A DNA stretch of 49,786 nt from Promethearchaeia archaeon. GTDB lineage: Archaea > Asgardarchaeota > Lokiarchaeia > Sigyniarchaeales > SOKP01. The DNA is taken from the NCBI GenBank assembly GCA_029856155.1, contig JAHQWL010000031.1:1-49786 (forward strand), given 5' to 3'. The notes beneath the pieces are model-generated. The model saw only the letters and a list, made by a program, of their open reading frames with translations. It searched no databases and was not told where the DNA came from. Of the stretch, positions 3-26,729 are shown piece by piece (position 1 is the first letter of the stretch; every line of letters starts with the position of its first letter). Both the position numbers and the translations under genes were made by a program.

Positions 3-773
3 ACTGATCAAATTCAAATTTCAGAACTGCCTAGTAAAAAAAATTCTGTAATTAATTTAAAGTTTGATAAAAAGCCCTCTAAATTACCACAAGAAGTCAT
101 AGTTAAAATTTTTAGAACTGAAAATATAGCAATTGAGTACAACATTTTAACTAGGCTTTGGAATCAAGGTTTTCATGTTCCAAGTATTTTATTTTTTCAT
201 AATCCTTATTTATTCCTCGAAAAAGTTGATGGTACAAATTTATGTGATTTTATCAATGAAAGATTAAAAGGCACCAAGCACTTAGATGATTTGGAATCTG
301 AAGCAAGAACTCAAATTGTTAATAGTATAGAAAAACTTGCTGAGTTTATTGCTCAATTTCATGAAAAAAATTTTGTCAGAAAAATGCATGAAGAAAAAAG
401 AAAATACGTTCTTTGTAAAGGAGATACAAGGCTTAGGGATTTCATTTATGATTCTATGAATGATAATTTGTATGCCGTTGATTTTGAGGATGCATATGAG
501 GGTAATCATATGGATGATTTGGCTTGGATATGCACTTCCCTTCTTGATACAGATCCAGGGATCTTTGAAATGGAGGAACCAAAACATAAGGTTGACCTGA
601 TAAACATATTCCTTAGAAAATATTACCGAACTAATCCAAAATTTTCTTTTGACTTTAATTATTTAGCTGAGAAGATAATTGATAATTTAAATATAGTTAT
701 AGAAAGGAGAAATCTTCCCTATGGCACTATCAGCAGAACTCTTTTTCTAGATGATATTTCTAAAGAAATATAA
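3..773 (+). CDS. Protein-kinase-like phosphotransferase (APH/Kdo/Bud32-like), 5' end outside window
   Basis: Frame is open from base 3 (TDQIQISELPSKKNSV...VIVKIF...E...HVPSIL...LFLEKVDG). It has a catalytic-loop-like LCKGDTRLRDF, a metal-binding VDFE and a downstream DDLAW. The ORF-track TTG start at 291 is internal. Confidence 0.75.
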   Translation, partial: TDQIQISELPSKKNSVINLKFDKKPSKLPQEVIVKIFRTENIAIEYNILTRLWNQGFHVPSILFFHNPYLFLEKVDGTNLCDFINERLKGTKHLDDLESEARTQIVNSIEKLAEFIAQFHEKNFVRKMHEEKRKYVLCKGDTRLRDFIYDSMNDNLYAVDFEDAYEGNHMDDLAWICTSLLDTDPGIFEMEEPKHKVDLINIFLRKYYRTNPKFSFDFNYLAEKIIDNLNIVIERRNLPYGTISRTLFLDDISKEI

Positions 774-1498: not shown

Positions 1499-1636
1499 GC
1501 AATTTAGATAATTGAATATCCAATTTAAGTTCTAATAATATTTATTTTTTTTATCTTTCTAAAAATCAAAATTTAATAATACTCACACTATTATTTTATA
1601 AAAATTAATAAAATTTTATTGAAAGGAGAAATTAAC

Positions 1637-2383
1637 ATGAGTCTTACTGATACCAAATCATCTTTAAAGAAGATTATTTCTATTATTGAAGAACTTAATG
1701 GATTAAATTCAAATTCAATTCCTAAATTACAAACTCAACCAACCAACCTACTCGAACAGATAGGAAAACTTGAAGAAGCCAAAACAAATGATTTAAGAAC
1801 TATTGAATCTAATGATGATGAAATTAATTCTTTAAAAAATAAGATTTCTCAAAATCAAAGGGATATTGCCTCATTAGAAGAAAATAATGCTGAACTCCAT
1901 AATCAACGACAAACTCTTCTTGACAAAATTCAAGATGCACAAAATGAATTAAATGAAACACAAACAAAAATCACTGCACGAAGGGAAGAGTTAGCAACTC
2001 GCAGCAGTCGATTAGATCAATTAGAAAATAGACTTATAGAATTAAAAGATATTCAAGAGAAATTCGATAATAAAATGAAAGAACTTGAAACTCAACTTCA
2101 AGAAGAATATAATAAAAAAGAGAAATTTAGTAATTCATACGCTATGCGAACCGCTGCGATGAAGTCTCTGATCAAAGCTGGTTATGTACAATCTGCCCAA
2201 TTAAAACTTATTCAAGCATTGCAGCCTAATACTACTCTTGAACTTAAGGGCATTGTTCAAGCGATGGGTTTAAGAGAAGATGTAGCAAAAAGTATACTGA
2301 CAAAAATAGTTCAAAAAAATGGACCAATTGAATATGATGAGGGAAGTGGAACAGTAACATTAAAAGGGGAGGTTGATTTCTAA
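1637..2383 (+). CDS. Long coiled-coil protein with C-terminal winged-helix-like domain
   Basis: ATG at 1637 follows AGGAG. About 170 aa are heptad-like and rich in E/K/L/Q/N. The C-terminus has a helix-turn-helix plus hairpin (LELKGIVQAMGLREDVAKSILTKIV...IEYDEGSGTVTL). Confidence 0.7.
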   Translation: MSLTDTKSSLKKIISIIEELNGLNSNSIPKLQTQPTNLLEQIGKLEEAKTNDLRTIESNDDEINSLKNKISQNQRDIASLEENNAELHNQRQTLLDKIQDAQNELNETQTKITARREELATRSSRLDQLENRLIELKDIQEKFDNKMKELETQLQEEYNKKEKFSNSYAMRTAAMKSLIKAGYVQSAQLKLIQALQPNTTLELKGIVQAMGLREDVAKSILTKIVQKNGPIEYDEGSGTVTLKGEVDF

Positions 2384-3111
2384 TGGGTTCACAGGAAATT
2401 TTGGCATTAATCGAACAATTTGAGACCGCTTATGATACTTACTGGCAGGTTCTTCAAAAGCATAACGAAGAAGTGCTTTCGCAGTTAAGAGAAGCATGGC
2501 GTTTCATGCAAGCAGAACAAAAGGAAGAAGAAAGTATCAAAGAAAAATTAGGCTCTCAAAATTCAGAACTAACAGAATTAAGAACAAAGTCAGAAGAATT
2601 AGATAGAACTATTGAAGGATTAAAAGCTAAAAAGGATGAATTAACTTCGAAGATTTCTGAATTAACAAATAATTTAGAAACCAGTGTCAATGATTTAAAG
2701 AAACCGGCGTTCGAACTTACACAGCTTGAGGAAAAACTTGCAGCTGCTAATGAAAAGATTACAGCGAAAGAACAAGAGAAAACTATACTTGATCAAAAGA
2801 CAGTCGAAAATGAAAACCGAGAAGTAGAGTTAAAAAATACCTACCAGAAAAAGATGGATGAACAAGAATCTAAAATTGATCAATTAAGACAAAAGAATTT
2901 CTTTACGTCCTTTTTGATTGAAAATTCAGATGAGGAGATAATAGAAGTCGATATCCTCGCTACTATCATGGATAAGGGAGAAGCTAAATTAGATGATTTA
3001 AAGAAACTTCTTGATGTTCCACCAATAATGGCGGTTCGTACAATAAAACAATTAAGTGTACGGGGTATACTTAATCTAGACGAAAATAGTGGAAAGGTAA
3101 CTCTACCCTAA
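2383..3111 (+). CDS. Long coiled-coil protein with C-terminal winged-helix-like domain, coupled to upstream gene
   Basis: TAATG overlap with a GGAGGT SD. Coiled-coil body followed by AKLDDLKKLLDVPPIMAVRTIKQLSVRGILNLDENSGKVTL. Confidence 0.7.
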   Translation: MGSQEILALIEQFETAYDTYWQVLQKHNEEVLSQLREAWRFMQAEQKEEESIKEKLGSQNSELTELRTKSEELDRTIEGLKAKKDELTSKISELTNNLETSVNDLKKPAFELTQLEEKLAAANEKITAKEQEKTILDQKTVENENREVELKNTYQKKMDEQESKIDQLRQKNFFTSFLIENSDEEIIEVDILATIMDKGEAKLDDLKKLLDVPPIMAVRTIKQLSVRGILNLDENSGKVTLP

Positions 3112-5120: not shown

Positions 5121-6338
5121 ATGAATAAAAAAGACATTATAATTGGAGTTTTACTTATAGGAATCGTTGGCATATCTGGTGGCTTAGGATATCTTTTAAT
5201 TGCAGGACCTGAAATATTTGGTCCACCTTCAGAAGGACCCACAAATCTATTTGGTCTACCAGATGACTGGAGTACAGCACCGAATGCATCCTATTTTATG
5301 ATCTATAATCAAACTGGAGCTTCTATAAAAGTAACATTGAAAGATATATTAGATGGTGTTGCCTTAGCTATAGAAGAACAAGCAGCAGAAGGACCAGAGA
5401 TTAATGCGTATAAAGATATTATATATCCTTATACATATCTAGATCCAGGAACTGGGCTTTATATAACTGGCGTGGATTTATTAGATATTTTAGAAAAATA
5501 TGACACTAATTTCGGTTGGGACTTAACTATTACTTCCAGTTATGGTCATACATTAGAATTAACGACGGGTGAACTCATTTCAAGAATGTATCATGGAGAT
5601 GAAGATCCTATTATTGTAGCTATTGCTGCAAATAAAGAATGGTTAGGAGAATCTCCATTAGGCCCAAATTGGGGTAATTTTACATTCATTGGCAAACAAT
5701 TTCCTTCAGCGATATATGATATCTCTCAAGTTGAGGTAATGAGCAATTGGACTGTTGAAGTAGTTGTAAATGGAAATGTGAATTACACAATTGATCAAAC
5801 TAATATGATATTAAATGAATATGACGATGAATACCACTATGACAGAGAGGATTGGTGGGATTTTCATAGACACTATTGGGCAAGAAATATTTCGGAAATC
5901 ATATCTCATACATCTGCAGCTGGTAAAAATTATACTGTTAGATTTTGGTCTGCTGATGAATGGGCGACTCCATGGCCATTCGGTGGAAAGAAAGAACTCA
6001 GATATAATAATACTCACGTAGAAGAAGGAATAATTCCTCCTTATCCTCAATGGGCTGATGGGTATTTAAACTCAACTGCAGATTTAATTAATGAGACTTT
6101 AGTTCCAATGCCTGAAACTAATCTTTTGATGGCTTTAGTCCATGCTGATCAAGAACTAGGAGAATCAGGACAAGGAATTACAGATCCTATCTGGCCATAT
6201 AGACGAACATGTGGTTATCATCGAGGACCGTTTTATTTAATTATTCCAGGAAGGCCAAGAAATACGTATCTCTCACATATTGTTCGAATAGAAATTACAT
6301 CATATACAGGACCAATTCCATCGGGGTTTTACCTATAA
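5121..6338 (+). CDS. Membrane-anchored extracellular protein with two degenerate sulfite-oxidase (molybdopterin-binding)-like domains
   Basis: N-terminal TM and many N-x-S/T sequons. Domain 1 is ITGVDLLDIL...TSSYGH...IIVAIAANKEWL; domain 2 is WTVEVVVNG...VRFWSADEW...LMALVHAD...GPFYLIIPG...LSHIVRIEI. These match 11374..12423 (WKGVPIKDLL...FYAADDY...LLAYEMNG...GFPLRLVAP...VKWVVRMEI) but lack the Mo-ligand Cys. Confidence 0.55.
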   Translation: MNKKDIIIGVLLIGIVGISGGLGYLLIAGPEIFGPPSEGPTNLFGLPDDWSTAPNASYFMIYNQTGASIKVTLKDILDGVALAIEEQAAEGPEINAYKDIIYPYTYLDPGTGLYITGVDLLDILEKYDTNFGWDLTITSSYGHTLELTTGELISRMYHGDEDPIIVAIAANKEWLGESPLGPNWGNFTFIGKQFPSAIYDISQVEVMSNWTVEVVVNGNVNYTIDQTNMILNEYDDEYHYDREDWWDFHRHYWARNISEIISHTSAAGKNYTVRFWSADEWATPWPFGGKKELRYNNTHVEEGIIPPYPQWADGYLNSTADLINETLVPMPETNLLMALVHADQELGESGQGITDPIWPYRRTCGYHRGPFYLIIPGRPRNTYLSHIVRIEITSYTGPIPSGFYL

Positions 6339-6347
6339 ACAAAAACA

Positions 6348-6370
6348 ATTTATTTTTTTTTTTAATTTAT
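6348..6370 (+). terminator. Oligo-T tract, archaeal-type terminator candidate
   Basis: Long T run just after the stop of 5121..6338. Similar tracts follow 1498, 3111, 3840 and 32622. Confidence 0.4.
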
Positions 6371-6400
6371 TGTAGTAAAAGTCAGAAGTAATGAATAGAA

Positions 6401-7300
6401 ATGAAAAAGCGAAATATCTTAAGATTATTTATTATTATATTTTCACTCTTAATATTAATTAGTATTAAATTTCACTCAGTTAATGCTTTTCCCCCTGATG
6501 GAGATTGTAAGGATTATCATAAAGTTGTAAATATCATCCCATATTATGAAAAATCGGCTTCCATAAATTTAGACGGATTACCTAATGAAAATTTTTGGAC
6601 AGTGCATACTCATGAAAATGAAAATGGAACGTTGATAATTCCCTTAGCTTCTGAATCTTATGGTCCTGATTTCTTCGTAGTATACCTTAACATGACTTTT
6701 GTATTAACAGCTACTTATCTTTATGTATTATGCCAGTGGTCTGACAATTCAACAAAACCAGATCTTGGTGCAAGTATTTATGATGGGTTATATTTCTGTT
6801 GGAATATAAATGTACCAAATTTTTCATCATATTTTCCAACTGGAATGAGTACTTTAGATATGGGAGGTGGTGATGTAGATAGCTGGGATTGGTCATGTTT
6901 AATCTCATCTCCTCCTAACGGTTCATCCTATTATTGTCGGGATAAATGTTTTGGTACCTACGTGTGGTATAGTCCAAGTTTAGAAACTGAAGATGTAGAA
7001 GTTGCTTATACGTATAGGACAAATACCTCATATACACTTGAGATTAAAAGAAAGCTAATTACAAATGATCCTTATGATGTTCAATTTGATCAATCTAAAA
7101 TTTATAAGTTTAATATGGGAATTATGGATGATGGAAACCATGAAGATCACGCAATATCTTGGACACATGCACTAGACTTAAGATCTCCCGAATCCTCAGC
7201 AGTAATACATGCCTATAATATTATTATAATTTTATCATTTTCAGCAATAGCTTTAGTAATTATAAAAGGAAATATTAAATATAATATCAAAAAGAGTTAA
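6401..7300 (+). CDS. Secreted ethylbenzene-dehydrogenase-gamma-like (DOMON) heme-binding protein with C-terminal sorting tail
   Basis: Signal peptide, then INLDG...W, LYVLCQWSD, GMST (Met ligand candidate), DSWDW, YTLEIKRKL, DVQF and HEDHAIS (His ligand candidate). Ends in IHAY-TM-basic tail. Confidence 0.7.
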   Translation: MKKRNILRLFIIIFSLLILISIKFHSVNAFPPDGDCKDYHKVVNIIPYYEKSASINLDGLPNENFWTVHTHENENGTLIIPLASESYGPDFFVVYLNMTFVLTATYLYVLCQWSDNSTKPDLGASIYDGLYFCWNINVPNFSSYFPTGMSTLDMGGGDVDSWDWSCLISSPPNGSSYYCRDKCFGTYVWYSPSLETEDVEVAYTYRTNTSYTLEIKRKLITNDPYDVQFDQSKIYKFNMGIMDDGNHEDHAISWTHALDLRSPESSAVIHAYNIIIILSFSAIALVIIKGNIKYNIKKS

Positions 7301-7308
7301 CTTACAGA

Positions 7309-7872
7309 ATGGAAAAAAGAAATTTCAATATTATGGTTATGAGTGTTATAATTGGAATGTCAGTGTTTTGGTTAAGTCTATATGCATTTATTATTTTAGA
7401 CATTGATCCATTATATCACATTAAAACCACATTTGGGGGAGAAGATACAATAATCCTTACCATAAAAGGAAATGTAAATAGAGAATTAGAGTTATCTATA
7501 TCTGATATTAAATCTGATAAATATCAACAAGTAAAGGATAGAACTTTTCATTTTATAAATGCTATAGGGAGTGAATTTGACGAGGTATACTCTGGTGCAT
7601 CATTATGGAGTATATTCGAAGAGGAAAATATATTAAATGAAGATGCTTCAAACTTCCTTTTTATAGGAGGAGATGGTTACTGGGCTGAAACTTATCTACC
7701 CTTAAATCTTGCTGAAAACCATACAGAACAAATAATTGTAGCTTATGAAAAAGACGGAGAACCAATCTATTATGATGGACCACTTAGAAGTATTGTAGAT
7801 CATGAATTAATTCCCGAAAAAGCAAATACTCATTATGCGATAAAATATTTAAAAACGATATTAATTCAATGA
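7309..7872 (+). CDS. Membrane-anchored molybdopterin-oxidoreductase-fold protein, Cys-less
   Basis: TM, then LTIKGNV, YSGASLWSIF, GGDGY, IIVAYEKDGEPI, GPLRSIV and IKYLKTI. The protein contains no cysteine. Confidence 0.75.
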   Translation: MEKRNFNIMVMSVIIGMSVFWLSLYAFIILDIDPLYHIKTTFGGEDTIILTIKGNVNRELELSISDIKSDKYQQVKDRTFHFINAIGSEFDEVYSGASLWSIFEEENILNEDASNFLFIGGDGYWAETYLPLNLAENHTEQIIVAYEKDGEPIYYDGPLRSIVDHELIPEKANTHYAIKYLKTILIQ

Positions 7873-7885
7873 ATTTTAAGAAAAA

Positions 7886-8512
7886 ATGAGAAAAGAAAAT
7901 ACAGACACAAATGAAATTGATTTAAAAGATGGTTATAAACCGTCAGGATATTTACATGAAAAGACTAAAGGTCTAACGCTTCTAGATCTTCTCTATTCAA
8001 CAATAATAGGAGTAATGGGTGGAATCATATCTAGTTTAATCCCATTTTCTTTATTAATAAAAGTTTGGTACCCATTAACTGGTGGTACACAGCTAGTAAG
8101 TGGACATCATGTTATCTGGGCGACAATAGTCTATGGTTTAACTCGGAAAAAACCAACGATAATGTTAATTATGATTACTAAAGGAATTCTAGAGTTTTTA
8201 TTTGGAGATGCATGGGGTTTATTAATTATTCTCGTGAACTTGATGGAGGGGTTCTTCTTAATAATTGGGTTTGAGTTAATGGAAAAGATTGGAGAAGGAG
8301 AAACTAAACTTGGATGGGCTATTGCAGGAGGATTTGGCAACTTTTTTCAAGCCCCATTTTTCTGGATTATTAATCAACGCTGGTATTTACATTGGGTACT
8401 TTGGGTTTTGGCTTTTATGTTTGCCTTTATATCAGGGATGCTAATAACAGGATTATTAGGTAGAACAGTGAAAAACTATTTGATTAAAGCGGGGGTACCT
8501 ACTACTTTTTAA
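7886..8512 (+). CDS. ECF transporter S component (YkoE-like)
   Basis: About 200 aa with 5-6 TM helices, LTLLDLLYSTIIGV start and C-terminal LIKAGV. Lies directly upstream of ECF A and T genes. Confidence 0.75.
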   Translation: MRKENTDTNEIDLKDGYKPSGYLHEKTKGLTLLDLLYSTIIGVMGGIISSLIPFSLLIKVWYPLTGGTQLVSGHHVIWATIVYGLTRKKPTIMLIMITKGILEFLFGDAWGLLIILVNLMEGFFLIIGFELMEKIGEGETKLGWAIAGGFGNFFQAPFFWIINQRWYLHWVLWVLAFMFAFISGMLITGLLGRTVKNYLIKAGVPTTF

Positions 8513-8518
8513 AATGAG

Positions 8519-10333
8519 GTGGCGCGTTTTCTCTCTAATCAAAAAATAGCTCTAGATTTTGAAGGCTTTTCTTTTATTTATGGAAACAATCAACATCAAA
8601 AACCTGTGGTTTCTGATATCTCTTTCAAATTAAAAGAAGGAGAAGTATTAATATTAGCTGGTCCAAGCGGAAGTGGAAAGTCTACTTTATCTTATGCTAT
8701 GAATGGTATAATTCCATGGCGTCAGAAGGGATTAGTTAAAGGAGATGTTAAAATTTTTGGAAAAAGTATTTGGGATTATGATTTTTCAGAATTATCAAAG
8801 TTAGTGGGATTAGTTAAACAGAATCCCAATGATCAATTAATAACTTTCAATGTTAAAGATGAAATTGCATTTGGTCTTGAGAATCTTAAGTTCTCACATG
8901 AAGTTATCGAAGAAAGAATTAATAATATTTCAAATTTGATGGGGATTAATCACTTATTAAATCGCGATATCGAACAACTCAGTGGCGGACAAAAACAACT
9001 TGTAATTTTAAGCTCATTCTTAGTCATGAATCCGAAGATTCTAATCCTTGATGAGCCAATCGCCTTCTTGGACCAACAATCCGAAAGTCTTTTGTTAAAT
9101 AGATTAAAAAATCTCATAGAATCAAAAAAAATTCCTCTAACATTAGTAATAATTGAACACAGATTATCAAGGGTAATGAATATCGCTGATAAATTAGTGG
9201 TTTTGGATGATCAGGGTAAAATTTCCTTAAAAGGAGATATTAAAAAAATTATCACTCAAAATTTTGAAGATTTACGTGCTAATAATATAAGAGTTCCATG
9301 GATAATAGACATTTTTCATGATTTTATAAAATTGAATAGAAGTACAGAAATTATTAGTTATCCTACAACTTTTCAAGAATTATTAGACATTATTCCACAT
9401 TTAGATAAAGAAGATTTGCGAAAATTATATCAGATTGTTATAGATAAAGAGATAGAACCAAAAGCTTTCCAAAAGTATGACAAATTTGAAGAACTAATAG
9501 AATTTAAGGATATTTATATAAAATCCTTGAAAAACACCGAAGATAAAGAAAATAATAATCCTCCCGAAGAGATTAATGAAATATTAGAGACAAAAAATCT
9601 TACTTTTAAATATCCCAACAGTGGAATCGTTGCTTTAAAAAACTTGAATATGAAAATAAACCAGGGGGACTTTATAGGGTTAGTAGGTCCAAATGGTTCA
9701 GGAAAAACTACTTTATTATATTTGCTTGCTAATTTATATGAACCAACCTCAGGTCATATTTACTATAATAACAAGAATTTAGAAGAGATCAATCAGTTTG
9801 AATATGCTAAAAAAATTGGTTTTATCTTTCAGAATCCAGAAAATATGATCTTTAGACCTACAATTGAAGAAGAATTATTATATGCACCAAAAAATTTCGG
9901 GTTGCTTAGTGATATCAAAGAATCTTATATTTCTAAGCTGTTAAAGTTAATAGGGAAAGAAGATCCTAAAAAAAATCCATATAATCTAAGTTGGGGTCAG
10001 AAACGTAGATTAAATCTAAGTTCTATTTTCATATATAACCCCGAGATTATTTTACTAGACGAACCATTTATAGGTCAGGACCAAAGAACCATAGACGCTT
10101 TAATCGAAACACTTTATATAGAAAATAAAAGGGGAAAAACAATTATTATTTCTTCACATGATTACCACTTACTTTTAAAATATACTAGAAGAATTATTGA
10201 ACTAAATAAAGATGGTACTCTACGAGATTATGATTTCAGCACTAATTATTTTCAGAAACATAGAAATTTAGGACCAATTATATTATTGGAGAAAATTGAA
10301 AAACAAATTGAACAAGAAGACAATGAGAAATAA
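8519..10333 (+). CDS. ECF transporter fused double ATPase (A-A')
   Basis: Two ABC domains: GPSGSGKS/QNP/LSGGQ/LILDEP/EH and GPNGSGKT/FQNP/LSWGQ/LLDEP/SH. Confidence 0.93.
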   Translation: MARFLSNQKIALDFEGFSFIYGNNQHQKPVVSDISFKLKEGEVLILAGPSGSGKSTLSYAMNGIIPWRQKGLVKGDVKIFGKSIWDYDFSELSKLVGLVKQNPNDQLITFNVKDEIAFGLENLKFSHEVIEERINNISNLMGINHLLNRDIEQLSGGQKQLVILSSFLVMNPKILILDEPIAFLDQQSESLLLNRLKNLIESKKIPLTLVIIEHRLSRVMNIADKLVVLDDQGKISLKGDIKKIITQNFEDLRANNIRVPWIIDIFHDFIKLNRSTEIISYPTTFQELLDIIPHLDKEDLRKLYQIVIDKEIEPKAFQKYDKFEELIEFKDIYIKSLKNTEDKENNNPPEEINEILETKNLTFKYPNSGIVALKNLNMKINQGDFIGLVGPNGSGKTTLLYLLANLYEPTSGHIYYNNKNLEEINQFEYAKKIGFIFQNPENMIFRPTIEEELLYAPKNFGLLSDIKESYISKLLKLIGKEDPKKNPYNLSWGQKRRLNLSSIFIYNPEIILLDEPFIGQDQRTIDALIETLYIENKRGKTIIISSHDYHLLLKYTRRIIELNKDGTLRDYDFSTNYFQKHRNLGPIILLEKIEKQIEQEDNEK

Positions 10334-11198
10334 AAATAAAATTTTAGATCATAGTTTATACACATTTGCTTATTTTCCTGGAAATTCATTAATGCATAAA
10401 TTAAATCCTATATCTAAGATTTTTTTTTTAATTTTGCTTACAATATCCATTTTTATGGTTAAAAGTTTGATAATGTTTTCAATAATTTTTATTCTGATTA
10501 TTCTTTTAGCACTAATCAGTAGTATATCCCTTAAGAATTTATTAAGAAAACTTAAATTCATAATTATTATTCTCATCATAAGTATAATATTGAATATCTT
10601 CTTCAATGCAATTCCAAGTAATCAAGAAACAGTTTTATTTTATCTTTTTAATATCCCCTTCCTACCAATAAGAAGATTAGCTGTATATTATGCTCTAAAG
10701 GCATCAATGATTGTACTTATATTATATACTTCTACAATCATATATACTAACACAACATCACCAAAGGATTTCTTATACTCACTTATTAGATTAAAAATAC
10801 CATATAGATATTGTTTTTCATTAATGGTTGGAATCAGATATATTCCATTGATTGAACAAGAAGCTAAAACAATAGCTTTAGCTCAAAGAGCAAGGGGTTT
10901 TGGACTTGAGAAGGTAAACTCAATTAAAAAAGCCTATAAGCTGATTTTTGAAAGATTAGTGGCAACTTTAATTTCAATCCTGAGAAAAGGGCACATAACT
11001 TCAATTTCAATGGAAAATCGTTGTTTTGGACTTCATAAAAAAAGAACTAATTTAAAAATTATAAAGTTCAGACTAATTGATGGCTTTTTTATCATTTTCT
11101 GTATATTTATTTTTTCTTTTTTTATATTGTATTTACTTCAATCACTACCGATCCCTGTATTACCTTCCTTATATCATTTATTTTTAACAATTTTCTAA
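10323..11198 (+). CDS. ecfT: ECF transporter T component (EcfT/CbiQ family)
   Basis: MHKLNPISK, RYIP, AQRARG and MENRCF coupling motifs. ATG at 10323 overlaps the end of the ATPase gene. Confidence 0.9.
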   Translation: MRNKNKILDHSLYTFAYFPGNSLMHKLNPISKIFFLILLTISIFMVKSLIMFSIIFILIILLALISSISLKNLLRKLKFIIIILIISIILNIFFNAIPSNQETVLFYLFNIPFLPIRRLAVYYALKASMIVLILYTSTIIYTNTTSPKDFLYSLIRLKIPYRYCFSLMVGIRYIPLIEQEAKTIALAQRARGFGLEKVNSIKKAYKLIFERLVATLISILRKGHITSISMENRCFGLHKKRTNLKIIKFRLIDGFFIIFCIFIFSFFILYLLQSLPIPVLPSLYHLFLTIF

Positions 11199-11373
11199 GA
11201 TTACTAGGATAGATACTAAGGAGGTTTAATTCAATTATTATAATTGAACTCTTATAATTTATAGCAAGGAACTTTTAAAATTAGGAAAGCCTAATTGACA
11301 TAATAAAAAATAGTATCATTCTCCGTTATTAATCTTATAAGATATTACAAAATTTAGATTCGAAGTAGTTTTT

Positions 11374-12423
11374 ATGGATAGGAAGAGACAGATGTATTTA
11401 AAATACATTGGAATTCTAATTTTATTATGTTTTCCCTTATTTGGACTGATGGGGCTCGTTTTGAGCAGAAATATTATTACTCCTAATGATGAGTTTTTTG
11501 TTGTGTCCAAGGGGGAATCTCCAACTATTCCTGTCAATACGTGGAGCTTAACGATATATGGACATGTAAATAACACTTTAATTTTTACTTATTCCAACTT
11601 TACATCCTTACCTTCAAAAGAAGTTATTGCGACACTACAATGTGTTGATGGACCTTCTGGTACCGCCAGGTGGAAGGGTGTTCCAATTAAAGATTTACTA
11701 GATTTAGCACAAGTACAAATAGGGGCTGTGGATGTTGTTTTTTATGCTGCAGATGATTATTCCTCCTCACTAACTATTGAAGAGGTAAGTGTAGAAAATG
11801 TTCTATTAGCATATGAAATGAATGGTGAACCTCTTCCGGTTGATCAAGGATTTCCACTAAGATTAGTTGCTCCAAACCACCTAGGATATAAGTGGGTGAA
11901 ATGGGTTGTTAGAATGGAGATTGTAGATTATAATTATATAGGTTTTTGGGAGAGTCGTGGGTGGAGTGATAATGCCTATCGTACACCTGTCACTGATTGG
12001 ATTTACCATTCTGCATTATTGGCGATTTCTTTTCTCTTGGGGGGGATTGCGTTAATGTCAGGATTAAAAAAGTCTCCAGTTACTGAATTCTTTCATGGTC
12101 TTCCTAAGTTTGTAAATAAGAAATTCCATATTACAATTGGAATTGGATATTTAATCACCACTTTAAGTAGTTTCTTCTATTGGGTTATCTCCACAATATT
12201 AAACAGAGGCGCTATTTTTTATACAATTCATGGTATTACAGCTTTAATATCTATTATTCTTGTAATACCCGGTGCTATTACGGGCTTTAAAAAATCAAAA
12301 AAAAGAGATTATGAAAAAAGAACATGGCATTATAAATGGAATTTATATTCCTTTTATTTCTTTTTAACTACAATTATTCTAGGATTTTTATTGATTTTTA
12401 TTAGATGGCTTTTTTTATACTAA
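11374..12423 (+). CDS. Molybdopterin-dependent oxidoreductase (sulfite oxidase/MsrP family) fused to a C-terminal 4-TM His-containing domain
   Basis: ITPNDEFF, TLQCV (Mo-ligand Cys), WKGV, LLAYEMNGEPLPVDQGFPLRLVAP, GYKWVKW and GFWESRGW. Followed by four TM helices, each carrying or adjacent to a His. Confidence 0.9.
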   Translation: MDRKRQMYLKYIGILILLCFPLFGLMGLVLSRNIITPNDEFFVVSKGESPTIPVNTWSLTIYGHVNNTLIFTYSNFTSLPSKEVIATLQCVDGPSGTARWKGVPIKDLLDLAQVQIGAVDVVFYAADDYSSSLTIEEVSVENVLLAYEMNGEPLPVDQGFPLRLVAPNHLGYKWVKWVVRMEIVDYNYIGFWESRGWSDNAYRTPVTDWIYHSALLAISFLLGGIALMSGLKKSPVTEFFHGLPKFVNKKFHITIGIGYLITTLSSFFYWVISTILNRGAIFYTIHGITALISIILVIPGAITGFKKSKKRDYEKRTWHYKWNLYSFYFFLTTIILGFLLIFIRWLFLY

Positions 12424-12549
12424 CTTGGAAAAGTATTAAAGAAGCTTTCCATATTCATCATTCAATATCAAAATACGAGCAGATTGTTAAATAATTTATG
12501 GTTTCTTGAAAGCCTTATTATTAATATTTATTAAAAGTCTAATTAAAAC

Positions 12550-12828
12550 ATGGAAGTAGAAGTTCTATATTTCGCTGAATTTAAGGATATAACTCGAAAA
12601 GAGAGAGAAAAGTTTAAATTATCCAATTCCACTTTAGCGGGATTATTAAGTTTATTATTTGAAAAATATAAATTGAGAAATTTAATTTGGGATGAAAAAA
12701 ATCAAAAGATGCATAATTTGATTTCAGTTATAATTAACAATCAAGCTACCCATGAAAAAGATCCATCATCAATTAATTTAAATGACAGAGATACAATTGC
12801 CTTCTTATTACCAGTTTCAGGAGGATAG
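12550..12828 (+). CDS. moaD: MoaD/ThiS family sulfur carrier (SAMP-like)
   Basis: VEVLYFAEFKDIT...DTIAFLLPVSGG with a C-terminal diglycine. Confidence 0.88.
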   Translation: MEVEVLYFAEFKDITRKEREKFKLSNSTLAGLLSLLFEKYKLRNLIWDEKNQKMHNLISVIINNQATHEKDPSSINLNDRDTIAFLLPVSGG

Positions 12829-12992
12829 AAGTAAATGAATTCAAACGAGAAAATAAAATTATGGAAGAGAGAAGCCTTTAGTAATTAATTCATTAAAAAT
12901 GGTCTATTGAAAATTAATTAATGAAAATTGACTATTTTTAAATTAGATTAGAAAAATTTCTTCTAAATAATTTTTATGAAATTAGAAATTAG

Positions 12993-13562
12993 TTGATTAG
13001 AATGATAAAAAAATCAAAAATTTCCGAAGACCCTATAAAGAAAACTCCTCAAAAAATTAATTTAGCTCTAATTATAGTAAGCACAAGTCAATTTCATGAA
13101 CTAAAGGAGAAAAAAAAAACTTCAGATAAGATAATTCCTAAAGTAGAGAGATTATTGAAGGATAACCAATCAATTTCATTAGCTTTTTCTGAAATTATTA
13201 CAGATTCAGAAGACCATATAAATAAAGTTTTAGTAGAATTAATGAAAGATGATAAAATTGATGCTATACTATTTAGTGGAGGCATGGGATTATCAAAAAA
13301 AGATATTACATATGAAACTTTAGAGCCTCGTTTCGAAAAAAAAATAAATGGTTTTGGAGAACTCTTAAGATCACTCTCGTATAATGAAATTGGTACTCCA
13401 GCTATGTTATATAGAGCAACTGCAGGTATTTTGAGAAGTAAGAAAAAGAGTAAAGCCATTTTTTTACTTCCAGGTTCTCCAGATGCTGTGAGCCTTGCAC
13501 TTCAATATATTATAATTCCCGAATTGGGAAATATTCTAAATTTAATCAATAAAGAAGAATAA
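12993..13562 (+). CDS. moaB: MoaB/MogA family molybdopterin-binding protein
   Basis: IDAILFSGGMGLSKKDITYE, GFGELLR, RATAG and LLPGSPDAV. Confidence 0.85.
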   Translation: MIRMIKKSKISEDPIKKTPQKINLALIIVSTSQFHELKEKKKTSDKIIPKVERLLKDNQSISLAFSEIITDSEDHINKVLVELMKDDKIDAILFSGGMGLSKKDITYETLEPRFEKKINGFGELLRSLSYNEIGTPAMLYRATAGILRSKKKSKAIFLLPGSPDAVSLALQYIIIPELGNILNLINKEE

Positions 13563-14831: not shown

Positions 14832-15713
14832 ATGGTTGATACAACCAGAATAGTAAAAGAAATACAAGAAAAATATAATATTATTGGTAGAACAGAAGAA
14901 CTAAAACAAATTGTTTTAGCTCATGCTGTAGGCAAAAATATATTATTGGAAGGAAACGTTGGAGTAGGCAAAACTACATTAGCGAAAGCCATTTCTGAAT
15001 ATTATGGTTCTGATGCTTCTAACTTCTATAGAGTAGACTGCAGTGAAGAATTACTCCCTCATAATCTTGTTGGATACTTTGATCCACCTCTAGTAATTGC
15101 TAAAGGTTATGTCGAAGATTCATATAAATACGGACCTTTAACCTTAGCTATGATAAATGGTGGATGCTTGTTTATAAATGAAATTAATAGAATGCCAGAG
15201 AGCACTCAAAATTCGTTGTTAACATCATTAGATGAAGGTATTCTTGAAATATCAAAATTAAAAACTATTAGAGCTCATAAGGATTTCTTTGTTATAGCAA
15301 CTCAAAATCCAGCAGCACATGTAGGAGTTACAATATTAGGCGAAGCACTAAAGGATAGATTTATTTGGATTAACTTAGATTATCAAACACCTGAAGAAGA
15401 ATTCTTAATAATTAAACAAGAAGCAAAGATGAACAGTAATAATGCTGATAAACTAGCCAAAATCTCTCAAAGTATAATCCAAATAACGAGAGAAAGTACT
15501 TCAATTCGAAGGGGAAGTAGTATTAGAGGAGCAATAGACTTAGCAACTTTAGTAAATCAATACGATAATAGTAACAGCTCTAAAAATTGGGTTGAAGCGA
15601 CTGTAATGGCATTATATAACAAGATTGAACTTGAGGATGGTTTGACTCAATCAAAAAAGGAAATAATCACGAATATTGTCTTAGCTGTATTGAATAAATC
15701 GGATTTTCAATAA
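14832..15713 (+). CDS. MoxR-family AAA+ ATPase
   Basis: IIGR, Walker A GNVGVGKT, Walker-B-like LFINEINR, IATQNP, EALKDRF and SIRG. Confidence 0.9.
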   Translation: MVDTTRIVKEIQEKYNIIGRTEELKQIVLAHAVGKNILLEGNVGVGKTTLAKAISEYYGSDASNFYRVDCSEELLPHNLVGYFDPPLVIAKGYVEDSYKYGPLTLAMINGGCLFINEINRMPESTQNSLLTSLDEGILEISKLKTIRAHKDFFVIATQNPAAHVGVTILGEALKDRFIWINLDYQTPEEEFLIIKQEAKMNSNNADKLAKISQSIIQITRESTSIRRGSSIRGAIDLATLVNQYDNSNSSKNWVEATVMALYNKIELEDGLTQSKKEIITNIVLAVLNKSDFQ

Positions 15714-16822
15714 TCGATGATTTCTCTGAGGAAGAATCTGAAGAGATTGAGAAAAGGCTGCATGTTAGACTAACCAAAAGTAAACCGGATAAAGAAATTT
15801 TAGAGTATGAAATAATCCGAAAAAAAAAGAAAAAGCCTGATTATTATAAACACCTTGCCAACACATTAGATTATAAGCAAATAAAGGAGCTAACGTATCT
15901 AGCAATACAACATAAAAATCTTGAAGCTTTAATGGGACTACTTAAAGCAAATGTTTATGCTTCTACAGATGCTTTAGATACTGAAGAAGGTGTTCAATTT
16001 TTCTCAGAAAAAGCTGCAGAATCAGGAGACTTTATGCCAGAGGTCTATTTTTTTATAAGACGCCCTATATCTAATAAATACAAATCAATTTTTAGACGGT
16101 TAGCACGTCAGAGTATTTTAAAACTCTCTTTAAAAATAACCAGTAAGGGAATTAGAGGGGAATTCAAAAAAACTGTTCCCTATTATCAAATGGGTATGCC
16201 AGAATTTAGCATGGATGAGACTATTCAACATAATCCATTAAAAATCTATAAAAGAAGCTTGAATTATAAAGACATTTATGGAATTGAGAGAAAACGGCAA
16301 AAAAGAAAAGTAGTATTGATACTGGATACTAGTGGTAGTATGTATGGGCGTTTGTTGCTTAATGCCGCTCTAACCACCTCCGTTTTAGCATATAATATGG
16401 AAAGAGAAGACTTTGCTATAGTTTTATTTAATTCTACAGCAATGATAATGAAAAAAATTAATCAAAAAAGACCTATAATTTCCATTATTGATGATATTTT
16501 AGATTCTGAAGCAGTTGGCTTTACGAATATTTTTATTGGATTGGAAAAAGGATTAAAAGAATTAAATAAAATAAAGGAAAAGAGAAAAAGTCGTTTTGGG
16601 ATATTAATAACAGATGGTAATTATAATCGAGGCGATGATCCCATAACTTTAGCAAAAAAATATCCAAAACTACATGTTATAGGAATGCCCGCTGAAAATG
16701 ATGCTGATCAAGGAATTGAAACTTGCCGAGAAATTGCCAAAGCAGGACGAGGTAAGTTTTATGCCGTTAATGATTATAAAGAAATTCCAAGAGCTTTAAT
16801 AGAATTACTATCTCAAACTTAA
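15710..16822 (+). CDS. von Willebrand factor A (vWA) domain protein, MoxR partner; start uncertain
   Basis: MIDAS motifs DTSGSM, GFTN and ITDG. The frame is open from 15698 with no ATG/GTG/TTG until 15932. Confidence 0.85.
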   Translation: MIDDFSEEESEEIEKRLHVRLTKSKPDKEILEYEIIRKKKKKPDYYKHLANTLDYKQIKELTYLAIQHKNLEALMGLLKANVYASTDALDTEEGVQFFSEKAAESGDFMPEVYFFIRRPISNKYKSIFRRLARQSILKLSLKITSKGIRGEFKKTVPYYQMGMPEFSMDETIQHNPLKIYKRSLNYKDIYGIERKRQKRKVVLILDTSGSMYGRLLLNAALTTSVLAYNMEREDFAIVLFNSTAMIMKKINQKRPIISIIDDILDSEAVGFTNIFIGLEKGLKELNKIKEKRKSRFGILITDGNYNRGDDPITLAKKYPKLHVIGMPAENDADQGIETCREIAKAGRGKFYAVNDYKEIPRALIELLSQT

Positions 16823-25106: not shown

Positions 25107-26729
25107 ATGACAGGACGATTCATGGTTGCTGGGAAATCCCCCCTAACAGGAACATGGGGAGATTCAAACTGTGGAGGATATTTTGGACCAGAAATAAAAA
25201 AGTGTGGTTTTGATGCAATATTGATTAAAGGAAAAGCGAATGGCCCTAAATACGTTGCCATTATTGATGATGAAAAATTAATTTTAGATGCTACCGATCT
25301 ATGGGGCTTAGATGTAGTCCAAACAGAAGAAAGGTTAACTGAAAAACATGGAAAGGTTCAAGTTGCAAGTATTGGTCAAGCGGGTGAGAATATTTCTCTT
25401 ATTTCTGGTATTGTTAATGATAAAGCTAGAATAGCTGGAAGATCTGGTTTTGGTGCAGTTATGGGTTCTAAAAAATTGAAAGCTATTATACTTAAAGGAA
25501 ACCGGAAAATCCCAATAGCAGATAAAGAAACACTTAATAACCATGCAAAAGAATATAACCAAGGTATAAATGATAACACTAGTGGTATGATTTACATATT
25601 CAAGACTTTAGGAACGAGTGCAGGTAATACATTCATGGCTCAATCAGGAGATACTCCTATAAAGAATTGGGGGGGTACATCAAAACAAGACTTTCCTGGA
25701 GTTAAGTTAAATAAAATTTCAGGGATGGAAATAGATAAATATAAACAGAAAGCCTATGGCTGCTTTTCATGTCCAACCCGATGTGGTGCTATTATGAAAG
25801 TTCCAGAAGTAGGACTAGAAGAAACTCACCGTCCAGAATATGAAACTTGTGCTAATTTTGGTTCTATGTTGTTAAATGATGACCTAATGTCTATTTTCAC
25901 AATTAATGATTTATGTAACCGAGCGGGGATAGATACAATTTCAGCGGGTACTACTGTTGCTTTTACAATAGAGTGTTATGAAAATGGCATTATTTCCAAA
26001 GATGAGACTGATGGACTTGAGCTAAATTGGGGAAATTCACCAGCAATAATAAAACTAGTGAAAAAGATAATAAATCGTGAGGGTATTGGGGATGTTTTAG
26101 CAGATGGGGTTAAGGTTGCTTCAGAAAAAATTGGGAAAGGAAGTGATAAGTATGCTATTCATTCAATGGGTCAGGAACTAGGTATGCATTCGTCAAAGTT
26201 CTATAAGAGCATGGGAGCAACTTTTGCTTTTGATCCTACTCCAGGGAGACATACTACACCCACTCTGGACTTTAGCACGGCTGGACCCATGGCAAAACCT
26301 AATGGATTGTTTGAGGGCTTTTCATTACCGGAAGGATTCAAAAAATCTGGTGATGAAAGAAGTGAAGCAGAAAAGCTAGTAGTTGGCATTTGGCAATCTT
26401 TAAATAGCCTGGGATTATGTGAGTTTATGGGGTCATTTCAAAAATACCCCCTTTTACAGATTATGAAAGCTGTGGTTGGGTGGAATATTACAATTGATGA
26501 ATTAGTAAAAATTGGTATAAGAATTCAAACCCTTAGACAAGCGTTTACGTTAAGAGAGGGCATAGACATTATTAATAATAAGTTACCGGAAAGAGCTGTT
26601 GGTATCGATTATTTAGCAGATTATAAAGGATACTGTAAAAAGATGGGTTGGAATCCGGAGAATGGTTACCCTTTAGAAGAAACTTTAACTGATCTTAATA
26701 TAGATTTCGTTATTGAAGATCTATATTGA
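25107..26729 (+). CDS. aor: Tungsten-type aldehyde:ferredoxin oxidoreductase family protein, N-terminus apparently truncated
   Basis: KSPLTG, AGRSGFGAVMGSKKLKAI, CFSCPTRC, PEYET, CNRAGIDTIS and LGLCEF. Family-like sequence extends upstream only to FFPGLLTGTIAP at 25071. Confidence 0.88.
   Translation: MTGRFMVAGKSPLTGTWGDSNCGGYFGPEIKKCGFDAILIKGKANGPKYVAIIDDEKLILDATDLWGLDVVQTEERLTEKHGKVQVASIGQAGENISLISGIVNDKARIAGRSGFGAVMGSKKLKAIILKGNRKIPIADKETLNNHAKEYNQGINDNTSGMIYIFKTLGTSAGNTFMAQSGDTPIKNWGGTSKQDFPGVKLNKISGMEIDKYKQKAYGCFSCPTRCGAIMKVPEVGLEETHRPEYETCANFGSMLLNDDLMSIFTINDLCNRAGIDTISAGTTVAFTIECYENGIISKDETDGLELNWGNSPAIIKLVKKIINREGIGDVLADGVKVASEKIGKGSDKYAIHSMGQELGMHSSKFYKSMGATFAFDPTPGRHTTPTLDFSTAGPMAKPNGLFEGFSLPEGFKKSGDERSEAEKLVVGIWQSLNSLGLCEFMGSFQKYPLLQIMKAVVGWNITIDELVKIGIRIQTLRQAFTLREGIDIINNKLPERAVGIDYLADYKGYCKKMGWNPENGYPLEETLTDLNIDFVIEDLY

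Follow-up and report, generated by a model that had tools for sequence, protein, structure and literature searches.

The window, that is, the whole stretch of 49,786 nucleotides that was analysed, belongs to the genome (97% complete) of a member of the Lokiarchaeia (Promethearchaeota). The nine co-directional open reading frames described in the original prediction are all present where it placed them. Together with a kinase gene at the contig edge and a pseudogene stub they make up the following features, which are referred to below by their first nucleotide.

3..773, + strand: small APH/RIO-like kinase, loosely associated; 5' end truncated by the contig edge
5121..6338, + strand: tandem PruR-like surface protein, candidate outer cofactor collector; N-terminal TM anchor and two Cys-less sulfite-oxidase-fold domains (about 54-209 and 210-396)
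6401..7300, + strand: DOMON/EbdC-like surface protein, accessory (weak Pfam, profile match, conservation)
7309..7872, + strand: single PruR-like domain, TM-anchored, candidate receptor on the S component (PF00174, alignments, complex model)
7886..8512, + strand: ECF S component, YkoE fold, distinct subfamily (PF09819)
8519..10333, + strand: fused A-A' ECF ATPase (TIGR04520/TIGR04521 over cut-off)
10296..11198, + strand: ECF T component (CbiQ/T; PF02361)
11374..12423, + strand: intact sulfite-oxidase-family Mo enzyme with a cytochrome-b-like membrane domain (PF00174 E 3e-40, DUF4079, weak b561)
12426..12521, + strand: moaA pseudogene stub, deletion scar (last 32 moaA codons, two in-frame stops)
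12550..12828, + strand: MoaD-like sulfur carrier with C-terminal GG, remnant of a deleted moa operon
12993..13562, + strand: MoaB-like protein with altered motifs GGMG and LYRA (alignment with 20 intact-operon copies)

From 5121 to 12993 the intergenic gaps are, in order, 62, 8, 13, 6, -38, 175, 126 and 164 nt, the overlap of 38 nt between 8519 and 10296 being counted from a TTG start of 10296. The S, A-A' and T genes lie in a single dedicated operon (a gap of 6 nt and one overlap), which is the layout of a group I ECF transporter. The core of the system is the segment 5121-11198, encoding the tandem and single Cys-less sulfite-oxidase-fold proteins, the accessory heme-DOMON-like protein and the YkoE-fold group I ECF importer. 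An Rfam scan of the window gave no match, a promoter scan of it nothing over chance level, and plasmid searches no match.

It had been proposed that 5121 and 7309 adopt the sulfite oxidase fold without the Mo-ligand cysteine, and this is confirmed by Pfam and profile matches, a structure model and alignments. Protein 7309 matches PF00174 (29.1 bits, cut-off 24), has one N-terminal TM helix and contains no cysteine. Its pterin pocket, about which the original prediction had asked, retains D122-x-Y124 as well as the phosphate-binding Arg160 and Lys179 in alignments, and this Arg and Lys align with the residues through which sulfite oxidase binds the MPT phosphate (alignment; PMC5856855). Protein 5121 has no Pfam match. 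Folded from its single sequence it reached a pLDDT of 38, and its AlphaFold model (AF2) from a 62-row alignment a pLDDT of 88; a structure search with this model (Foldseek/VIA), likewise suggested beforehand, returned PruR (7kom) as the best match (Z 13.2, rmsd 2.0 Å over 118 residues), with sulfite oxidases matched too. Each half of 5121 matches the 7309 family by profile (probabilities 90 and 89) and 5121 is therefore taken to consist of two domains; a direct comparison of the halves with each other gave no significant match. Its sole cysteine, Cys364, lies away from the Mo-ligand position and is kept in 35 of 62 homologues. The protein has 10 N-x-S/T sequons, and its domains lack the Arg at the phosphate position. 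PDB searches from the single sequences of 7309 and the S component found nothing significant.

The Cys-less SUOX fold of PruR (PDB 7kom, 7kp2, 7kos, 7rkb) has been shown to bind pterins (PMC11194511). As in PruR, the fold is located outside the membrane here, and 7309 keeps the aromatic at the D-x-Y pterin-stacking position. On the other hand, PruR is soluble, binds small unphosphorylated pterins and signals to a diguanylate cyclase, whereas the domains described here carry membrane anchors, occur in tandem or are joined to a transporter, and they have ECF genes as neighbours rather than a DcpA-type diguanylate cyclase operon. Moreover, PruR 7kom has Trp and Gln where 7309 keeps the phosphate-binding Arg and Lys, the PruR cleft itself is too short for Moco, and the PW motif that PruR has at the Cys position is absent from our alignment (A3). 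The sulfite oxidase enzymes (SorA, MsrP/YedY, chicken SO) share the fold and the GP-L-R and V-K motifs, but 5121 and 7309 lack both the Mo-ligating Cys and the dimerisation domain, and only 11374 is an enzyme.

The S component matches PF09819 (31.6 bits, cut-off 25.2) and, by profile, the YkoE structure 5EDL (E 2e-6). Like YkoEDC, the thiamine/HMP importer of Bacillus subtilis (PDB 5EDL, PMC5037267), the system combines a YkoE-fold S component, a fused A-A' ATPase and a T component in one operon, and relatives of it are under riboswitch control. The S component, a PF09819 member, is labelled a thiamine/HMP permease in some sources, PruR binds non-Moco pterins (PMC11194511), and a heme-DOMON gene lies within the operon, all of which would suit import of thiamine/HMP, of another pterin (folate, methanopterin, monapterin) or of heme, with an incidental link to Moco. 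Several lines of evidence make this very unlikely. Firstly, the YkoE ligands Tyr46, Trp49, Glu77, Gln95 and Asp131 (PMC5037267) align to Ser72, His75, Glu103, Glu121 and Trp160 of the S component; although the alignment is distant and single positions are approximate, four of the five thiamine ligands are replaced, and the Glu77 equivalent is not kept in all family members. Secondly, no thiamine genes or TPP riboswitch were found near any locus examined, and the riboswitch on relatives is of the Mo/W-cofactor type: RF01055 lies 155-245 nt upstream of three related metagenome operons and, in tandem, 0.9 kb upstream of a fourth. Thirdly, thiamine, other pterins or heme would leave unexplained why the importer and MoaC/MoeA exclude each other in several lineages, a distribution complementary to the Moco pathway that also sets the system apart from YkoEDC. 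Finally, about one in three Lokiarchaeia loci lacks the DOMON gene (a 6401-like gene occurs in 22 of 35 cassette loci), and none was detected in fused-type loci. The expectation that this is not a typical thiamine/HMP YkoE protein thus held. A quick tree with long branches and no thiamine YkoE row shows no more than that the 39 cassette-linked S proteins of Lokiarchaeia form one supported group. One row (L073) of alignment A4 is misassigned.

A further difference from YkoEDC is that outward-facing receptor domains stand beside the S component or are fused to it. A 7309-like gene is present with S in 34 of 35 cassette loci of Lokiarchaeia, a 5121-like gene is present in 27 of the 35 (some loci being cut by contig ends), and in 17 of 20 loci of other Asgard archaea, as well as in metagenome loci, S is fused to a Cys-less PruR-like domain. 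The linkage of S to Moco-fold genes is therefore conserved, as had been anticipated. In the fused domains of one Asgard family a Trp stands in place of the Arg, as in PruR; given this, and the lack of the Arg in 5121, the bound species may differ. A complex model of 7309 with the S component scored 0.68, the best control scoring 0.00. Among 80 solved complexes 58 attained this mark of 0.68, against 2 among 110 mismatched pairs. At least 95% of contacts agreed between runs, partner pLDDT was at least 86, and the DGY loop of 7309 contacts the outer loops of S. The model suggests that the pocket of 7309 docks on the S component, which would make 7309 a candidate receptor docked there. It is extremely improbable that the region instead holds an extracellular redox module merely neighbouring an unrelated ECF transporter: a heme-DOMON protein and a membrane-bound Mo enzyme are indeed encoded here, and some bacterial look-alikes carry FMN-binding domains, but the domains have no metal ligand, the 7309-like gene accompanies S almost invariably, PruR-like domains are fused to S elsewhere, and the complex model supports direct contact.

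Protein 6401 has TM segments at both termini, weak, sub-cut-off matches to PF03351/PF09459 (DOMON/EB_dh) and a profile match to nitrite oxidoreductase subunit C (E 9e-7). Met149 and His250 are conserved in the alignment and, judging from it, are likely heme b ligands. We regard 6401 as accessory, possibly involved in redox handling of the cofactor.

The host genome contains 16 AOR-family matches, most of them with intact motifs, and 7 PF00384 (DMSO-reductase-family) matches, and no MoaA, MoaC, MoaE, MoeA, TupA or TupB was found in it; its sole PF13531 protein had no NCBIfam match. Two MobA-like genes are present, and their products are retained downstream enzymes. The moaA stub matches MoaA residues 275-306 of three relatives (53-66% identity, E 1.6e-8 to 2e-6, tblastn), and genome L060 has a similar stub; the stub marks a true deletion of the pathway. 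An assembly gap as the cause of the missing pathway is ruled out by this scar and by closed genomes. In the MoaB-like protein, compared with 20 intact-operon copies, GGTG has become GGMG, LSRA has become LYRA and the N-terminal His pattern is lost; two Asp positions look retained in the alignment. It thus does not have the GGTG motif together with the family-invariant residues that mark an active MoaB/MogA MPT adenylyltransferase. The changes occur only in cassette-only copies, and the protein is, from its motifs, probably degenerate or repurposed. Neither the moaA 3' stub nor the altered MoaB motifs had figured in the original prediction.

Two parts of that prediction need revision. It had included an intact Mo enzyme, and 11374 does retain the ligand Cys90 (TLQC), but only in loci of the same genus does an 11374-type gene come after the cassette; it is probably a client and not part of the core. 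It had also assigned MoaB and MoaD the handling of the cargo inside the cell. However, moaD/moaB follow the cassette without a moa/moe operon only in same-genus relatives, and the majority of cassette loci have neither gene; MoaD and MoaB are leftovers of a deleted operon, not a processing arm.

These observations bear on the nature of the cargo, for which Moco, MPT or a precursor had been suggested. If a metal-free precursor (cPMP or MPT) were imported, the metal would have to be inserted inside the cell by MoaB/MoaD or another insertase. The moaD and moaB frames are open here, Cys-less pockets need no metal contact, and at high molybdate the metal can enter MPT without MoeA. Even so, we consider such a cargo unlikely, since MoaE (required for the step from cPMP to MPT) is absent along with both MoeA genes and TupAB, most cassette loci lack moaD/moaB, and MoaB is altered only in the cassette-only copies. 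That MoeA and TupAB have been lost indicates the metal-loaded cofactor, the Moco of the suggestion, as the cargo and makes a metal-free precursor unlikely.

Among 151 Lokiarchaeia, 51 have the importer only, 71 MoaC/MoeA only, 10 both and 19 neither, four weak S paralogues (G040, G116, G090, G130) being excluded from this class count and AORs being present in 150. The split repeats within genera (11 versus 36 with an overlap of 1 in g1; 20 versus 12 with an overlap of 0 in g4), although, with related genomes of which most are incomplete, these counts cannot be treated as independent trials. Of 157 further Asgard genomes, 52 had an S homologue and 74 had MoaC, without overlap, some matches of family f27 in this phylum count being another paralogue. 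Carriers thus mostly lack the synthesis pathway, in agreement with the prediction. Pathway genomes carry tupABC-moaCADE-moeA-moaB-moeA between kinase/coiled-coil genes on one side and MoxR-vWA on the other, and in this same slot other genomes carry the cassette; in four loci operon and cassette follow each other. Pathway loss is not always paired with the importer: in Asgard family f10, which has AORs in 21 of 21 genomes and MoaC in 2 of 21, no S component of the importer family is detectable, and four Lokiarchaeia that are 92-100% complete have neither importer nor pathway. In Promethearchaeum syntrophicum MK-D1, which is in culture, the importer is present and the pathway missing; an RNA run gave one 19-kb contig across genes and spacers alike at the MK-D1 locus and is for that reason uninformative on expression.

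A TupB-like gene was found in 0 of the 51 importer-only Lokiarchaeia; a TupB-like query was used in place of PF12849, which was not specific enough to serve as a tungstate marker (20 of the 51 gave matches to it, probably other binding proteins). The absence of TupAB wherever the cassette stands alone could mean that the cassette is a tungstate/molybdate importer replacing TupABC, with the pterin coming from an unrecognised pathway or the enzymes being inactive; metals are cargo of some ECF systems, and family f10 owns AORs without pathway or importer. We nevertheless find this highly improbable. The metal by itself is no substitute for MoaA, MoaC, MoaE and MoeA; the fold of the receptors is a pterin-binding one and that of the S component the vitamin-type YkoE fold; and two genomes (G138 and G048) keep TupB alongside the importer. 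Although TupABC, WtpABC and ModABC also serve Mo/W systems, and TupABC holds the same slot in relatives, they are of the classical binding-protein ABC class, and what they transport is bare metal, of no use to a cell that lacks MoeA.

Taken together, the sequence comparisons and models make it likely that the system is a dedicated group I ECF candidate importer, through which metal-loaded Mo/W pyranopterin cofactor (W/Mo-MPT, bis or dephospho form) would be salvaged, replacing de novo synthesis. The central idea of the original prediction, an ECF importer that has Cys-less receptors and takes up a Mo/W pterin cofactor, withstood all the genomic tests which that prediction had put forward, whereas the MoaD/MoaB role did not hold and the metal-free cargo is unlikely. 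In the mechanism that we propose, 5121 and 7309 would bind cofactor shed by neighbours or lysed cells via its pterin and phosphate; as no Cys locks the metal, binding would be reversible and protective. Anchored against S, 7309 would pass the cofactor to the S pocket, and A-A' and T would power toppling and inward release. For AORs and DMSO-reductase-family enzymes, MobA-like proteins would then assemble bis-MPT and bis-MGD; in family f32 a MobB-like gene lies within the cassette. The heme-DOMON protein may be an optional redox helper, and restoring the phosphate may fall to the small kinase. In Lokiarchaeia, members of the kinase family lie close to either the cassette or the moa operon, and in loci from other Asgard archaea and from metagenomes they adjoin the cassette, from which we infer that 3..773 is a candidate for re-phosphorylating dephospho-pterin.

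It counts against this reading that free Moco is chemically unstable and that its uptake is thought not to occur in most organisms (PMC9026282). De novo synthesis is held to be necessary in every cell that uses Moco, the sole cited exception being Caenorhabditis elegans (PMC9026282), an animal which, like the system proposed here, obtains ready-made cofactor from other organisms through dietary salvage (PMC9026282, PMC9793310). In a genome survey, about 300 prokaryotes were found to have Moco enzymes and an incomplete pathway, a finding for which no explanation was given (PMC6147048). A literature search, to which subscription journals were mostly out of reach, found no description of the system. 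To our knowledge, no microbe imports finished Mo/W cofactor. The system is a candidate transporter for this gap of orphan Moco enzymes and, if the reading is true, would be the first membrane importer of the cofactor and would add to the ECF transporters a design that includes a receptor domain of its own.

More broadly, it is fairly probable that many Asgard archaea, including the cultured P. syntrophicum MK-D1 and Ca. Lokiarchaeum ossiferum, are W/Mo-cofactor auxotrophs fed intact cofactor by their partners via an ECF class with a pterin-fold receptor for S, and that the same class operates in anaerobic bacteria under the Mo/W-cofactor riboswitch, which would make Moco/Wco a shared community vitamin. 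MK-D1 depends on a molybdopterin-dependent formate dehydrogenase, and the exchanged cofactors listed for it are B12, biotin, lipoate and TPP (PMC7015854). Because MK-D1 has the importer without the pathway, the reading is testable in culture. It predicts an unrecognised nutritional dependence of the cultured Asgard archaea, which would bear on their cultivation and on models of syntrophy.

The nine genes originally described here were borne out. The gene at 7309 encodes a protein with a transmembrane (TM) anchor, a PF00174 domain and zero cysteine, as predicted for a Cys-less, membrane-anchored protein of the sulfite-oxidase fold. No family match was found for 5121; its assignment to the same fold is upheld by a confident structure model, which resembles PruR pterin receptors and sulfite oxidases, and by its two halves, each of which matches the 7309 family. 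The 6401 product appears DOMON/EbdC-like, with Met149 and His250 conserved; 7886 encodes the S component, 8519 the A-A' and 10296 the T component of a group I ECF importer, and 11374 an intact Mo enzyme. The genome carrying them has a size of 4.1 Mb and is 97% complete; the names of homologues, together with Ras-type GTPases, assign the window to Lokiarchaeia (Promethearchaeota). It also contains a second ECF module (A, A' and T; G000:C1:19917-22418) without an adjoining S gene, probably a shared group II module. Other features of the window are:

1619-3111: a pair of coiled-coil proteins, one of which matches a winged helix at its C-terminus
12426-12521: moaA stub in the spacer before moaD (last 32 codons, two stops)
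14832-16822: MoxR-type AAA+ ATPase and vWA gene pair, the downstream edge, in both genome types, of the slot shared by importer cassette and cofactor-synthesis genes
25107-26729: short AOR gene (540 aa) whose family-model match begins at profile position 78; its sequence may reflect 5' truncation

Judged by its gene content, this organism is predicted to need the Mo/W pterin cofactor and to be unable to make it. The genome has 16 AOR-family matches, 12 of which keep the CxxCxxxC motif, and seven PF00384 matches. MoaC, MoaA, MoaE, MoeA, TupA and TupB were not found in it, and for those sought by protein family the controls were positive in at least 11 of 14 reference genomes; two MobA-like genes are left. 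The loss of the pathway is real: the spacer before moaD retains the end of moaA with its stops. The moaD and moaB genes keep the order of an intact operon from which the intervening genes have been deleted. Compared with 20 intact copies, MoaB is altered at GGTG and LSRA, as are two other cassette-only copies.

Among 151 Lokiarchaeia genomes, AORs are present in 150, the S gene in 61, MoaC in 74 and MoeA in 79. The importer alone occurs in 51, pathway genes alone in 71, both in ten and neither in 19, of which 15 are <90% complete; these are plain counts without a p-value, because related genomes are not independent. The split recurs within two genera, and none of the 51 importer-only genomes has a TupB-like gene. 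Both systems use the same slot, flanked by kinase/coiled-coil genes on one side and MoxR-vWA on the other, which contains tupABC-moaC-moaA-moaD-moaE-moeA-moaB-moeA in pathway genomes, the cassette in others, and the cassette followed by the pathway at four loci. The simplest reading would be differential loss from an ancestor that had both systems. The cassette is also present in P. syntrophicum MK-D1, Ca. L. ossiferum and Ca. H. repetitus, whose single-contig genomes gave no match to MoaA, MoeA or MoaE. The coiled-coil pair is a conserved neighbour of the slot across most Lokiarchaeia; in family f32 it adjoins the cassette (L258, L259).

At 35 Lokiarchaeia loci, some ending at contig ends, the S gene has a 7309-like companion in 34 cases, a 5121-like one in 27 and a DOMON gene in 22. 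The Mo enzyme, lone moaD and moaB follow the cassette in same-genus loci only. The core is thus 5121-11198, without the last three of the nine genes originally described. Several variations were observed. The A-A' ATPase and T are fused (about 850-875 residues) in Promethearchaeum and close relatives (L038, L040, L054, L073, L117, L118, L122); a second S-gene copy adjoins a PF00384 gene in some genomes (L042:7887-8513, L052:889-1500, L051:9504-10130); and in several a DUF364 (putative heavy-metal chelation) gene directly follows the cassette on the opposite strand (L032:5844-6695, L033, L044), with a distant homologue on contig C21 of the genome studied here.

Across the other Asgard classes, 157 genomes include 52 with an S homologue and 74 with MoaC, with zero overlap (S versus MoaC: 26 to 14 in family f12, 17 to 2 in f17). 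Outside Lokiarchaeia, a single TM helix usually links S, in one fusion protein, to a PruR-like domain that lacks Cys, downstream of a gene for a multi-domain PruR-like protein; in f32 the row is T, a MobB-like gene, a 7309-like gene and S. Fused-type metagenome loci share this design of the other Asgard classes, and S-layer-homology proteins suggest that some are Bacillota. Among 22 loci scanned, the Mo/W-cofactor riboswitch RF01055 (PMC2408646) lies 155-245 nt upstream of three of these operons and, in tandem, 0.9 kb upstream of a fourth. Family f27 has a separate, unfused YkoE-fold S paralogue (L155:8158-8790, L156, L163) near a MoaD-like gene and a 445-residue protein, RuBisCO-like by eye.

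The distribution has limits: besides the ten Lokiarchaeia genomes with both systems, family f10 (e.g. G263, G279, G271, G305, G154) has AORs in 21/21 genomes and MoaC in 2/21; MoeA was not found in the five tested, nor an S component of this importer family in f10. It possibly has a second route to the cofactor. In G154 and G281, PruR-like genes adjoin other ABC genes (L256, L257).

PruR demonstrates pterin binding by this Cys-less SUOX fold; it uses an Asn-x-Tyr motif together with a Trp, and its cleft was judged too short for Moco (PMC11194511). In a 27-row alignment of the 7309 family that includes the intact enzyme, Asp122 is kept in 26 and Tyr124 in 23, Arg160 in 19, and Lys or Arg at 179 in 21; pocket residues differ between subfamilies. 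The last two positions correspond in SorA to the GYPLR and WVK motifs, whereas PruR (7kom) has Trp and Gln there. Mapped by motif, their counterparts in chicken sulfite oxidase are Arg288 and Lys301, the residues that bind the phosphate of MPT (PMC5856855). The S component differs from the thiamine/HMP protein YkoE in four of its five thiamine ligands (PMC5037267). In a model of the 7309-S complex, the anchor of 7309 packs against S, and the DGY loop of 7309 rests on the outer loops of S, which supports a predicted contact between the two proteins. The model scored 0.68, against 0.00 for the best control; 58 of 80 solved complexes and 2 of 110 mismatched pairs attain this score. Contact agreement was at least 95% and partner pLDDT at least 86.

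The cassette is a real and conserved system and, on the best reading, probably a Mo/W-cofactor salvage importer. Its component families are known; no account of their combination, of the cargo or of the implied auxotrophy turned up in the literature searched. Reviews describe Moco uptake outside C. elegans as unknown (PMC9026282), and orphan-molybdoprotein genomes are a standing puzzle (PMC6147048). The most economical reading of the cargo is the metal-loaded cofactor, since cPMP would be of use only with MoaE, and MPT only with MoeA and a source of metal, and the genome lacks all of these. A small APH/RIO-like kinase, which accompanies the cassette in distant lineages and is also retained beside the moa operon, may restore phosphate. 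E. coli MobA turns Mo-MPT into bis-Mo-MPT and bis-MGD (PMC9103625); the two MobA-like genes left in this genome could thus supply both enzyme families.
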